A DNA stretch of 16,521 nucleotides from a bacterium (GCA_043803945.1 JAZDJN010000112.1:1-16521); one strand, 5' to 3'. Positions 1,596 to 10,722 are shown, counted from the stretch's first letter. Numbers and translations are program-made. Notes: generated by a model not told the origin, from the letters alone.

Positions 1596-1720
1596 AGACA
1601 CACAGTTGTTAGCCCTGCGAAAGTGAGGACCCAGTGTCTTTGAAGAAAGCAAAGAGCCGATAAATAAGGCACTGGACGCTCGCTTGTGCGAGCGAGACAC
1701 AGTGTTCGAGAATGAGACAT
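1596..1720. repeat. Degenerate copy of the A/B palindromic doublet repeat found at 8922-9863
   Basis: A-like 27-mer GTTAGCCCTGCGAAAGTGAGGACCCAG (1608-1634), a 37-nt spacer containing CTTTGAAGAAAG, and B-like 27-mer CTGGACGCTCGCTTGTGCGAGCGAGAC (1672-1698). Flanked by B-tail remnants AGACACACAGTT and GTTCGAGAATGAGACAT. Confidence 0.85.
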
Positions 1721-1797: not shown

Positions 1798-1890
1798 ATG
1801 AACACTATTCAGATGTACTATCTCTATATCATGGCGAGTAAACGCAATGGGACATTATATATAGGAATTACCAAGGATGAGGTGGCATAA
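1798..1890 (+). pseudogene. Truncated GIY-YIG nuclease (N-terminal ~27 aa only)
   Basis: RBS GGAGGAG, then MNTIQMYYLYIMASKRNGTLYIGITKDEVA*, closely matching FYVYIMASKRNGTLYVGVTND of 9348-9665. Not in the ORF track because it is too short. Confidence 0.85.
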
Positions 1891-7598: not shown

Positions 7599-8907
7599 AA
7601 TACTCTTGTTTGCTATGCGTGAATATAAAGCGGCAGTGAAAACGAAAGGATTCATTATAGGGCTTATTCTTGCACCATTGGTGATGGGAGGGGGGATGAT
7701 TGCGTTTTTCCTCATGAAAGACCGTATTGATACGGATGATAAACGACTTGCCATCGTTGACCGTACTGGAAAAATTGCACAAATACTGATCGAAGCCGCA
7801 AAGGATCGAAATGAGAAAAGAATTGTTGACGAGACAACCGGAAAAAAGATCAAGCCCGCGTATCTCTTCGAAGTCGTACCGCCGAACAATGGAGACCCGA
7901 AAGGACAGCGCCTTGAACTCTCTGACCGTGTGAGAAACGGCAGCTTGTTTGCGTTCGTTGATATCGGTGCAAAGGTAATCCATCCGGGGGGCGACAGGGA
8001 TGCATCCAGCATTTCTTACTACGCGAAAAATGCAGCGATCGATGATCTTCGAAGCTGGCTTAGCGGACCCATCAATGTCCGTCTTCGCGAACTCCGGCTG
8101 GCAGATGCGGGCTTGAAAGAATCCGATATCAAAGACCTGTTTTACTGGGTAGGTGTTGACGGGCTTGGATTACTGTCGGTGGATAAGGAAACTGGAAAGA
8201 TTGAAGATGCACGGTCGGCAAGCCCGATCGAAGCACTTCTCATCCCCATCGTGATTATGATGCTCATGTTTTTAATGATTATGATGAGCGTTCCGGGAAT
8301 GCTGCATTCTGTGATGGAGGAGAAAACGCAGCGCATTGCTGAAGTGTTGTTGGGTTCAATCAAACCATTTGAATTCATGATGGCCAAAGTGTTAGGCGGT
8401 ATTGCCGTATCACTGACAAGCTCGGCGGTGTACATCGTTGGCGGAATTCTTGTTGTACAGTATATGGGCTATTCAGACTATGTTCCCTACCATGTAATTC
8501 CATGGTTTATCGCGTACATGCTTCTTGCCATTATCATGTTTGGTGCATGGTCGGCGGCATTAGGTTCGACCTGCAGCGAAGCGAAAGACGCTCAATCCTT
8601 AAGTTTCCCTTCAATGCTTCCTGCATTGTTTCCCATGTTCATCTATGTCCCCATTGCACGAGAACCGCTGGGAAGCTTCGCCACAGGGATGTCGTTGTTC
8701 CCTCCTTTCACGCCTCTGCTTATGACGCTCCGGCTTTGTACACCAGGCAGTGTGCCGCCATGGCAGCCGTATGCCGGTTTGCTGGGTGTGTTGTTGTTCA
8801 CACTCTTCTTTGTCTGGGTTGGCGGCCGTATTTTCCGTGTAGCAATTCTCATGCAAGGAACGCCGCCGAAACTGACCAATATTATTCGCTGGGCGATTCG
8901 TGGATGA
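7591..8907 (+). CDS. ABC-2 type exporter permease (NatB/YhaP-like)
   Basis: AAGGAGG RBS, overlap with the ATPase stop; REY..AVKTKGF, large extracytoplasmic loop, EEKTQRIAEVLL, PPFTP motifs. Confidence 0.92.
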   Translation: MRKILLFAMREYKAAVKTKGFIIGLILAPLVMGGGMIAFFLMKDRIDTDDKRLAIVDRTGKIAQILIEAAKDRNEKRIVDETTGKKIKPAYLFEVVPPNNGDPKGQRLELSDRVRNGSLFAFVDIGAKVIHPGGDRDASSISYYAKNAAIDDLRSWLSGPINVRLRELRLADAGLKESDIKDLFYWVGVDGLGLLSVDKETGKIEDARSASPIEALLIPIVIMMLMFLMIMMSVPGMLHSVMEEKTQRIAEVLLGSIKPFEFMMAKVLGGIAVSLTSSAVYIVGGILVVQYMGYSDYVPYHVIPWFIAYMLLAIIMFGAWSAALGSTCSEAKDAQSLSFPSMLPALFPMFIYVPIAREPLGSFATGMSLFPPFTPLLMTLRLCTPGSVPPWQPYAGLLGVLLFTLFFVWVGGRIFRVAILMQGTPPKLTNIIRWAIRG

Positions 8908-8921
8908 GAATAAACATCTTT

Positions 8922-9281
8922 GTCGTCCCCGCGAACGCGGCCTGCTTGCCGGTCGGGCAGGGAATCCAGCGCCGTTAAATGAGCGATTAACCGGTTTAGA
9001 AAGTCGCTGGACACCCGCGTTCGCGGGTGAGACACACTGTTGTCATCCCCGCGAAAGCGGGGATCCAGAGCCTTTGAAGAAAGGATAAACCGGTTTAGAA
9101 AGTCACTGGGTACCCGCGTTCGCGGGTGAGATACACTGTTGTCATCCCCGCGAAAGCGGGGATCCAGAGCCTTTGAAGAAAGGATAAACCGGTTTAGAAA
9201 GTCACTGGACACCCGCGTTCGCGGGTGAGACATGAAAAAGGAAAGTCATTCCCACGCAAGTGGGAATCCAGAGCCGTTGAA
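8922..9281. repeat. Left array of 27-bp palindromic repeats (A1-B1, A2-B2, A3-B3, A4), 99-bp period
   Basis: A = GTCATYCCCRCGNAAGYGGGRATCCAG at 8922-8969 (interrupted), 9042, 9141, 9245. B = CTGGACACCCGCGTTCGCGGGTGAGAC at 9007, 9106, 9205. A-to-B spacers are 37 nt. Confidence 0.95.
8941..8961. mobile_element. 21-bp mini-palindromic insertion CCTGCTTGCCGGTCGGGCAGG inside repeat A1
   Basis: Removing it restores a 27-mer GTCGTCCCCGCGAACGCGGGAATCCAG collinear with the other A copies. Confidence 0.75.
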
Positions 9282-9347
9282 ATAATAAGAAGAGAGAAAT
9301 ATCTATATTCCATTTCAAGGAAGGAGTGGAATATATAAGGTAGGACT

Positions 9348-9665
9348 ATGAAAACGAGTAAAACTTTTTACGTTTATATTATGGCAAGCAAACGTAATGG
9401 TACACTCTATGTGGGTGTGACAAATGACCTTTATCGGAGAGTGTATGAACACAAGCAGGATATCATTGAAGGTTTTACGAAGCGGTACGGCGTACATATA
9501 CTTGTCTACTATGAAATTGCTGAGGATATCTATGGCGCCATACAGCGTGAAAAACAATTAAAGAAATGGTATAGAGCCTGGAAGATTGAATTGATCGAGG
9601 CGAATAATCCATATTGGCTGGACCTGTATCAGAAGGATGGAAAAATTCTTCCACTACCTTTGTAA
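9348..9665 (+). CDS. Stand-alone GIY-YIG nuclease family protein
   Basis: YVYIM...LYVGVTNDL.RRV.EH, AIQREKQLKKW.RAWKIELIE..NP.W.DL; the conserved Tyr/Arg/His/Glu/Asn residues are present. Confidence 0.95.
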   Translation: MKTSKTFYVYIMASKRNGTLYVGVTNDLYRRVYEHKQDIIEGFTKRYGVHILVYYEIAEDIYGAIQREKQLKKWYRAWKIELIEANNPYWLDLYQKDGKILPLPL

Positions 9666-9669
9666 AACT

Positions 9670-9863
9670 GTCATTCCCACGTAAGTGGGAATCCAGCGCC
9701 TTTACAGAAGCAGCAGATCTGTAAGTAAGTCACTGGGCACCCGCGTTCGCGGGTGAGACATGAAAAAGGAAAGTCATTCCCACGCAAGTGGGAATCCAGA
9801 GCCGTTGAAGAAGCAACAAGCCTATAAGGTAAGTCACTGGACACCCGCGTTCGCGGGTGAAAC
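9670..9863. repeat. Right array of 27-bp palindromic repeats (A5-B4, A6-B5)
   Basis: A at 9670-9696 and 9773-9799; B at 9733-9759 and 9837-9863; spacers of 36 and 37 nt. Confidence 0.95.
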
Positions 9864-10038
9864 ATATAATCAAAACTAAACCGCTGAATACATTATTTCA
9901 ATCGTCAAATTCTTACCTTGTGTTCCCGTAAACACCCCTCATTGTTCTGAACGCGAAGAATTGACTTTCCACGCGGTGATCGCTAAGTTCTCAAGAATGT
10001 TATCCGATGGACACTGTTGCAGGAGGAGATGAAGGAGC

Positions 10039-10722
10039 ATGCCAATGACGAAAACCATTGAGCAGGAAAGTGAGCATGAGAACCCAGCCGCAACCATTGA
10101 TGTTGTGCCGGAGATTACTGCTTTTGGCGGAACACTTGCTTTGGCCTTCTTTTCCGGTTGGTCAACCCGGGATTTGATCTGGAGCCTCTGGCTCTCAAGT
10201 CTGACTGTCGGATTCTTGTCCGCTGCAGTCAAGCCAGTGTGTCGTGTATTCCAATCCGATCTCACCGCATTGGAACGCGTCTTTTCAATCATTGGAGTTT
10301 TAGGAGCTATGCTGATGTTCTCAATCCACTTCGGCTCGTTCCATTATTTGTATGCCGCTATGCTTGATTTACTCATGCCGTTGATGGATCATCCTGGACG
10401 TGTCTATATTGGAAAATTGACCTGGAAAGGAATATCACCATTCTCATTCTGGGTAACACTCGGCATCGCTTTTTCGCATTACTGGCCGGTTGCGGTACTT
10501 AATGTATTCCGTGATCGCCGCACAATCATGTCTGAAAATGAGCCGGGAAAAAATTTTGGCCCCTACCGTACAGTATTGAAACTGCACTTTCTTGTGATGG
10601 GGTTGGGTGCGTGTTATGGTTTGGGTCTGGAATCATTTCCTGTCTATGCAGCGGTGTTCATAGCGCTCTTTGTGCCGGCAACGCTATGGAAAAGAATTTT
10701 CGTGCGAAAACCTGAGGGGTAA
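10039..10722 (+). CDS. Membrane protein, possibly DUF6498-like
   Basis: AAGGAG RBS; multiple TM helices; GW...DLIWSLW and F.IHFG.FH motifs. The family assignment is tentative. Confidence 0.7.
   Translation: MPMTKTIEQESEHENPAATIDVVPEITAFGGTLALAFFSGWSTRDLIWSLWLSSLTVGFLSAAVKPVCRVFQSDLTALERVFSIIGVLGAMLMFSIHFGSFHYLYAAMLDLLMPLMDHPGRVYIGKLTWKGISPFSFWVTLGIAFSHYWPVAVLNVFRDRRTIMSENEPGKNFGPYRTVLKLHFLVMGLGACYGLGLESFPVYAAVFIALFVPATLWKRIFVRKPEG

Follow-up and report, generated by a model that had tools for sequence, protein, structure and literature searches.

The window analysed here is a stretch of 16 521 nucleotides of bacterial DNA (GCA_043803945.1, JAZDJN010000112.1:1-16521). Its segment 8922-9863 consists of 11 copies of a 27-nt repeat of the form GTC-hairpin-CCAG in alternating orientation, among which lies a gene for a small GIY-YIG nuclease. 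The array sits between convergently readable genes, directly after the gene for an ABC-2 permease. The repeat unit is composed of a GTC tag, a stem of 8 bp (A type) or 7 bp (B type), a 4-nt loop and a CCAG tail. All six A copies are on the plus strand and all five B copies are on the minus strand, and the six A and five B 27-mers that had been described as inverted doublets in an earlier reading of the sequence alone (the sequence-only reading) are thus all present. The description of the copies as plain 27-mers with a GTC frame applies to most of them, the exceptions being A1, which is split by a 21-nt palindrome, B2, which begins with ATC, and B5, which begins with GTT. The conserved spacer ends reported in the same reading were recovered, while the measured A-to-B spacer length was 35-37 nt and not 36-37 nt. 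The coordinates of all features are collected in Table 1 (SRM, Ssn-related motif).

Table 1 Repeat copies, nuclease gene and decayed second locus in the window
Feature	Position	Strand	Remarks
A1 SRM hairpin	8922-8969	+	Interrupted by a nested palindrome of 21 nt (8941-8961), with GTC tag and CCAG tail intact
B1 SRM hairpin, TCACCC type	9007-9033	-	Matches the published SRM search motif
A2 SRM hairpin, ATCCCC type	9042-9068	+	Matches the published SRM motif; ssDNA fold of -9.8 kcal/mol
B2 SRM hairpin	9106-9132	-	Tag mutated to ATC; 3' stem altered
A3 SRM hairpin	9141-9167	+	27-mer identical to A2; matches the published SRM motif
B3 SRM hairpin, TCACCC type	9205-9231	-	Matches the published SRM motif
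A4 dRS3-type hairpin (ATTCCCAC...GTGGGAAT)	9245-9271	+	76 nt 5' of the ssn start codon
ssn-like gene, 105-aa single-domain GIY-YIG nuclease	9348-9665	+	Pfam PF01541
A5 dRS3-type hairpin	9670-9696	+	4 nt past the ssn stop codon; same orientation as the gene
B4 SRM hairpin, TCACCC type	9733-9759	-	Matches the published SRM motif
A6 dRS3-type hairpin	9773-9799	+	27-mer identical to A4
B5 SRM hairpin	9837-9863	-	Tag mutated to GTT
Decayed doublet	1608-1698		Degenerate A-type arm 1608-1634 (+), 37-nt spacer, B-type arm 1672-1698 (-)
Truncated ssn remnant, 30-codon ORF	1798-1890	+	64% identical to residues 1-28 of the protein of the intact gene

Nine of the 11 array copies retain the GTC tag, and the CCAG tail is present in every one; in context the tag reads TGTC or AGTC. 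The B-to-A linkers measure 8, 9, 13 and 13 nt. The spacers resemble each other, with common ends and two of them nearly identical, and a 97-nt block (spacer end, B arm, linker, A arm, spacer start) is duplicated with 93% identity on both sides of the segment formed by the gene and A5. The doublets are heterotypic, an arm of the ATTCC/ATCCC type being paired with one of the TCACC/CACAC type across three subfamilies that differ in loops and spacers. A CRISPR array was considered as an identity for the segment and rejected, as the repeats alternate in orientation and the spacers have common ends and include two that are nearly identical. A4, A5 and A6 fit ATTCCC-N8-GGGAAT, the definition of the Neisseria dRS3 repeat as quoted by Chenal et al. 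(2025, Nat Commun; PMC11893778), in agreement with the assignment made from the sequence alone. The degenerate search sequence published for SRMs is matched by five of the 11 copies (B1, A2, A3, B3 and B4); the other six deviate at stem positions (A4-A6), by the split (A1) or by tag changes (B2 and B5).

The palindrome nested in A1 belongs to a family of perfect palindromes with dozens of copies in the genome. A search with the frame CCTGC-N9-13-GCAGG gave 89 matches, many of them the same 19-21-mer, and further sites of the family were located at C37:9568, C98:63847, C104:90856 and C65:96302 (contig handle and position). Several copies, the one in A1 included, are nested within SRM hairpins, and similar nested inserts were seen in SRMs of relatives (downstream flanks of L044, L045 and L020).

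The intact GIY-YIG nuclease gene that had been reported as the only gene inside the array was recovered as such: no other intact ORF with a family match lies within it. The encoded protein of 105 residues matches PF01541 over residues 7-80 (E 9.6e-18), has no other Pfam family at E values up to 0.001 and ends 25 residues past the GIY-YIG domain, so that it carries no DNA-binding extension. Residues Y10, Y21, R31, H35, E68 and N87 are invariant in nine close homologues. Upstream, A4 is separated from the gene by 76 nt, and downstream A5 follows after 4 nt; both of these neighbours are in the orientation of the gene, and all 11 repeat copies are found within 430 nt of it. A sequence search of the PDB with the protein gave no match at E values up to 0.01. 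The sole NCBIfam match was to the group I intron endonuclease model TIGR01453, with 23.4 bits below the cut-off of 56.05, and together with the missing DNA-binding domain this led to the rejection of an identity as a group I intron or homing endonuclease. The GIY-YIG homing endonucleases of the I-TevI and Seg types have the catalytic domain in common with the window protein and a selfish-gene lifestyle is plausible for it as well, but it lacks their C-terminal DNA-binding domain, and its characterized relatives cut only single-stranded DNA.

A second and decayed locus lies within the same window (Table 1). The B-type arm of its doublet constitutes a sixth match to the published SRM motif, located beside a truncated copy of the gene that starts 99 nt after the doublet. 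Repeat and gene occur together at 1608-1890 for a second, independent time within 8 kb. The stop codon of the ssn remnant overlaps, as TAATG, with the start of a 97-aa ORF (1890-2183), which has apparently taken the place of the 3' portion of the nuclease gene and whose product includes two CxxC pairs and a hydrophobic segment.

Single repeat copies fold as ssDNA hairpins with energies of -7.5 to -9.8 kcal/mol (z-scores of -3.6 to -7.2 against shuffled sequences), and an A/B doublet has two possible folds, a single long hairpin or a pair of local ones. Across relatives the stems differ, each of the eight pairs showing compensatory changes, while the GTC and CCA frame is constant. More than one Watson-Crick pair type occurs at each of the 8 stem pairs in a set of 73 unique hairpin 27-mers from relatives, and the paired fraction over 146 27-mers selected by the frame only was 0.655, compared with a maximum of 0.531 in 200 partner shuffles. 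A scan of positions 8700-10100 against Rfam with E values up to 1 gave no match. In a promoter and terminator scan the counts were not above those of shuffled sequences; the two terminator-like matches (shuffle mean 1.5) lie on the minus strand at A4 and A6.

Chenal et al. (2025) described SsnA, a 94-aa GIY-YIG protein (cd10448) of Neisseria meningitidis, together with NTS, an oriented extension of dRS3. Purified SsnA is reported there to bind the NTS hairpin solely as ssDNA and in one orientation only and to cut a few nucleotides upstream of the motif, dsDNA and RNA of the same sequence being ignored. Cleavage was found to depend mainly on the three nucleotides preceding the palindrome and binding most on the C after it; activity was lost when the stem sequence was changed with retention of the structure, and the substitutions Y6A, Y17A and E64A abolished cutting. 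An SRM is given as being near 71% of the ssnA homologues, 42% being flanked on both sides, and the motif-flanked homologues number thousands. Loss of ssnA in N. meningitidis increased transformation with NTS-bearing DNA approximately fivefold in a motif-dependent manner, and the NTS-ssnA-NTS arrangement was likened by the authors to insertion sequences and to REP/RAYT. The same repeats had been described by Di Nocera et al. (2013, BMC Genomics; PMC3733652) as CGTC-tagged REPs (CGTC-1 to CGTC-4, with dRS3 as CGTC-1), in which the tag is often TGTC and the tail is CCA and which, according to these authors, 'seem lacking a dedicated transposase'. In the literature collection searched, no later paper on the Ssn family was listed beyond Chenal et al. 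(2025).

The window locus resembles the Neisseria system in several respects. Its protein is likewise a single-domain GIY-YIG protein of about 100 residues, in which the spacings of Y10, Y21 and E68 (11 from Tyr to Tyr and 58 from Tyr to Glu) are identical to those of the mutated catalytic residues Y6, Y17 and E64 of SsnA, a match by spacing and not by direct alignment. The repeats have the GTC tag, 8-bp stem, 4-nt loop and CCAG tail in common, the gene is motif-flanked in both cases and the motifs are clustered in mosaic arrays like the NIMEs of Neisseria. In contrast, the present host is an environmental bacterium, its genome is without an exact NTS, the tag is TGTC or AGTC instead of CGTC, the doublets pair two different stems, the copy number is low and the downstream neighbour of the gene is in the same orientation and not inverted. 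With the CGTC-tagged REPs as described by Di Nocera et al. (2013), the array has in common the TGTC tag, stems of 8-9 bp opening with A-T pairs, loops of 4-5 nt, the CCA tail and the organization as inverted dimers or large clusters, Chlorobi and Bacteroidetes being among the hosts listed there; it differs in that a dedicated nuclease gene lies among the repeats, as in the system of Chenal et al. (2025).

The window protein can be linked to the named Ssn family indirectly, through Kangiella taiwanensis: the genome of this species contains two matches to the protein (70 and 55% identity) and is scored YES in Supplementary Data 4 of Chenal et al. (2025) both for an SsnA homologue of >60% identity and for a cd10448 homologue. 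The array repeats are very probably SRMs, relatives of the Neisseria NTS and dRS3 within the superfamily of CGTC/TGTC-tagged REPs.

The association between gene and motif was analysed in a scan using one genome per species, which gave 593 relatives of the window protein; the flanks of the best 80 (58-73% identity) were inspected. These span Proteobacteria, Patescibacteria, Chloroflexota, Nitrospirota, Ignavibacteria, Cyanobacteria, Verrucomicrobiota and others. At least one SRM lies within 700 nt at 57 of the 80 best loci and none at 23, and the 80 loci together contain 130 SRM matches, compared with a mean of 0.64 and a maximum of 4 in 50 dinucleotide shuffles. The motif is typically forward when upstream of the gene and inverted when downstream of it: within 150 nt, a forward SRM is located upstream at 42 of these loci, an inverted SRM downstream at 33 and both at 23. 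The window-like arrangement, with an SRM of the same orientation at most 150 nt downstream, was read from the listing at 13 of the 80, and the exact published NTS is present at 12. The gene-motif association across phyla is strong.

Two of the loci recovered deserve separate mention. L090 (JABDRC010000072.1), a 4.2-kb contig of a metagenome-assembled genome (MAG) labelled as a Halobacteria archaeon, encodes a homologue of 60% identity whose gene is preceded, at a distance of 3 nt, by an exact NTS; this represents either a transfer into archaea or a binning error. In L105 (JBDIVS010000023.1), from a Wenzhouxiangellaceae MAG, the homologue lies in an array of 15 SRM matches within 1.7 kb, a denser mosaic than that of the window.

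Among 61 genomes of the same family and the same order, a homologue (E up to 1e-10) was found in 25 and the strict pattern of the repeat in 12. The homologue is present in nine of the 12 pattern-bearing and 16 of the 49 pattern-less genomes, a comparison between kin that are not independent and with a pattern that misses variants with 9-nt loops. At the 28 homologue loci of these relatives, the published motif lies within 200 nt at eight and a relaxed frame at ten, nine of the latter ten falling among the 13 best-scoring homologues. In one relative (G042) all three pattern matches of the genome lie at most 2.1 kb from the gene and two flank it directly, with 13 nt between the end of the forward copy and the matched stretch and 18 nt between the latter and the start of the inverted copy. 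The flanks are heterotypic in same-family relatives too, while the arms are identical in many other phyla. Gene-bearing cassettes in relatives and gene-less doublets have one topology, namely forward arm, insert and inverted arm.

The genome-wide copy count suggested in the sequence-only reading was made with the frame GTC-N3-CCC-N8-GGG-N2-TCCAG, which occurs 15 times in the 5.54-Mb genome, eight of these in the array, and not at all in the reversed control. The published SRM motif gave 50 matches in the genome, compared with 15-28 in five simulated genomes, and a profile search with nhmmer combined with a doublet search gave approximately 18 doublet loci, in which there are approximately 30 convincing motif copies. 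An exact NTS does not occur in the 5.54 Mb; one match (C80:68017) appears when the initial C is omitted. Overall, the genome contains few SRMs. It contains 16 matches to the GIY-YIG domain, and gene and repeat are combined only at the window locus and its truncated neighbour. Most of the doublet loci are without a nearby nuclease gene, and two of the closer paralogues (56 and 51% identity) are without an SRM in their vicinity. Judged from this genome alone, gene and repeat seem only weakly linked.

Seven heterotypic doublets of 84 bp with 9-nt loops were located at C26:76953, C54:87232, C87:227664, C108:4593, C16:257848, C21:41753 and C85:26545. They are enclosed in a MITE-like unit of about 130-140 nt with its own outer inverted repeats, which contain GTCTAAAAAG. 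Three copies of another hairpin, with the core TCCCGA...TCGGGA after TTG, flank a more distant small GIY-YIG paralogue of 37% identity (C101:46020-46292, inside C101:45614-46651). Hairpins of this kind occur 24 times in the genome and twice in the reversed control, and the locus suggests a second pair of nuclease and hairpin.

From this evidence the locus is very probably an Ssn/SRM system, consisting of an Ssn-family GIY-YIG nuclease and a cluster of its cognate hairpin motifs. The cross-genome test and the published biochemistry of SsnA support the central proposal of the sequence-only reading, a nuclease functionally paired with GTC-tagged hairpins in a REP/RAYT-like layout with a different enzyme, and the homology to SsnA, as characterized by Chenal et al. 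(2025), speaks for recognition of the repeats by the nuclease. The pairing of nuclease and repeat was already published in 2025, and the window locus is a further example of it and not a new system. Inverted hairpin doublets, BIME-like arrays and one small gene with its own repeats on either side are also common to the REP/REPIN-RAYT (TnpA-REP) systems, and both enzymes would act on folded ssDNA, here by homology to SsnA. A hydrolytic GIY-YIG nuclease nevertheless takes the place of the HUH Y1 transposase and the tag is GTC instead of GTAG; neither an HUH Y1 gene nor GTAG-tagged REPs characterize the locus, and only the layout of doublets and array is common.

The binding and cleavage chemistry of the window protein is deduced by homology from that of N. 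meningitidis SsnA. In single-stranded DNA each 27-mer would fold into a hairpin of 7-8 bp, to which the Ssn-like protein would bind in one orientation, with a requirement for the stem sequence and for the C right after the palindrome. Cleavage would need the GTC tag just before the palindrome, and the enzyme would be expected to hydrolyse the tag-bearing strand, a few nucleotides upstream of the tag, and to leave duplex DNA and RNA alone. For a doublet of forward arm, spacer and inverted arm, or for a cassette of arm, gene and arm, cuts are predicted just outside the unit on opposite strands. Given the sensitivity of SsnA to the stem sequence, the two arm types, A and B, may differ as substrates, and one enzyme may not serve both.

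In this organism the locus most likely acts as a cassette that is selfish for the most part and spreads horizontally, with gene-less doublets as its derivatives; its nuclease may also cut ssDNA carrying the motif. The identity of homologues to the window protein reaches 73% in other phyla and 69% in genomes of the same family; the cross-phylum identity is thus no lower, which points to horizontal transfer. Together with the patchy distribution of the gene (25 of 61 relatives), copies broken by internal stops in some relatives and the truncated copy in the window, these identities fit a selfish cassette that moves horizontally. Neither a target-site duplication, nor an empty site, nor junction-level proof of mobility was found; in a synteny test, a homologue of the downstream gene (DUF6498) was present in one of 40 relatives, where the ABC-2 permease gene was not beside it, so that no empty site was available for comparison.

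That the nuclease propagates the repeats, as the sequence-only reading proposed, is only a hypothesis, which was raised also by the authors of SsnA (Chenal et al., 2025). It can be developed into an analogy with REPtrons that extends the Ssn/SRM explanation and does not contradict it: the arm-ssn-arm cassette would be an autonomous, self-propagating nuclease-only element and the A-spacer-B doublets its miniatures, both propagated by the nuclease, with the arms acting as left and right ends as in IS200/IS605. Ssn would then be the long-missing enzyme of the CGTC/TGTC-tagged REPs, and the protein identities would reflect frequent horizontal spread. We regard this extended scheme as possible but doubtful. 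The single topology of cassettes and gene-less doublets is in its favour, as are the patchiness of the gene, its broken and truncated copies, the cross-phylum identities and four dispersed 84-bp doublets, the nearly identical spacers of which suggest recent spread. However, GIY-YIG enzymes are hydrolytic nucleases, which are not known to carry out a strand-transfer step. The copy number in this genome is low, target-site duplications and empty sites were not found, and the 84-bp doublets lie within a longer unit with outer inverted repeats of its own, which another enzyme could move.

A domesticated function, in which the nuclease would restrict incoming or exposed ssDNA bearing the motif and thereby limit recombination near marked loci, as proposed for Neisseria, is less probable still and is considered unlikely here. 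It draws on the motif-dependent rise in transformation upon loss of ssnA that was reported for N. meningitidis (Chenal et al., 2025), but the roughly 30 convincing copies in about 18 doublet loci of the present genome come nowhere near the hundreds known from Neisseria or Wolbachia, and with so few copies genome-wide marking would be weak.

It is very improbable that the repeats are ordinary REP-like hairpins, serving as terminators or in mRNA stability, among which an unrelated GIY-YIG gene of the homing type lies by coincidence: the position of the array between convergently readable genes and directly after the permease gene, the terminator-like character of A4 and A6 on the minus strand and the many doublet loci without a nuclease gene would suit such a view, but the association recurs at 57 of the 80 best loci across phyla with 0.64 matches expected, the terminator-like count hardly differs from the shuffle mean, the group I intron endonuclease model scores far below its cut-off and the protein has no DNA-binding extension. 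An RNA reading, in which transcripts of the array serve the nuclease as structured RNAs, the other possibility raised in the sequence-only reading, or as guide-like ones, is disfavoured to the same extent. The regular spacing and partly variable spacer middles, superficially CRISPR-like, would suit it, but the repeats alternate in orientation, the spacers resemble one another, Rfam gave no match and purified SsnA did not interact with RNA of the same sequence (Chenal et al., 2025).

As an Ssn/SRM system, the locus adds an example from an environmental bacterium to a family characterized in Neisseria, and it offers a possible new pair of enzyme and site for ssDNA tools. Spread of the hairpins by Ssn nucleases would settle the origin of the CGTC-tagged REPs, and the genome could help in judging this because it combines several hairpin subtypes, heterotypic doublets, a truncated second copy of the gene and GIY-YIG paralogues with hairpins of their own.
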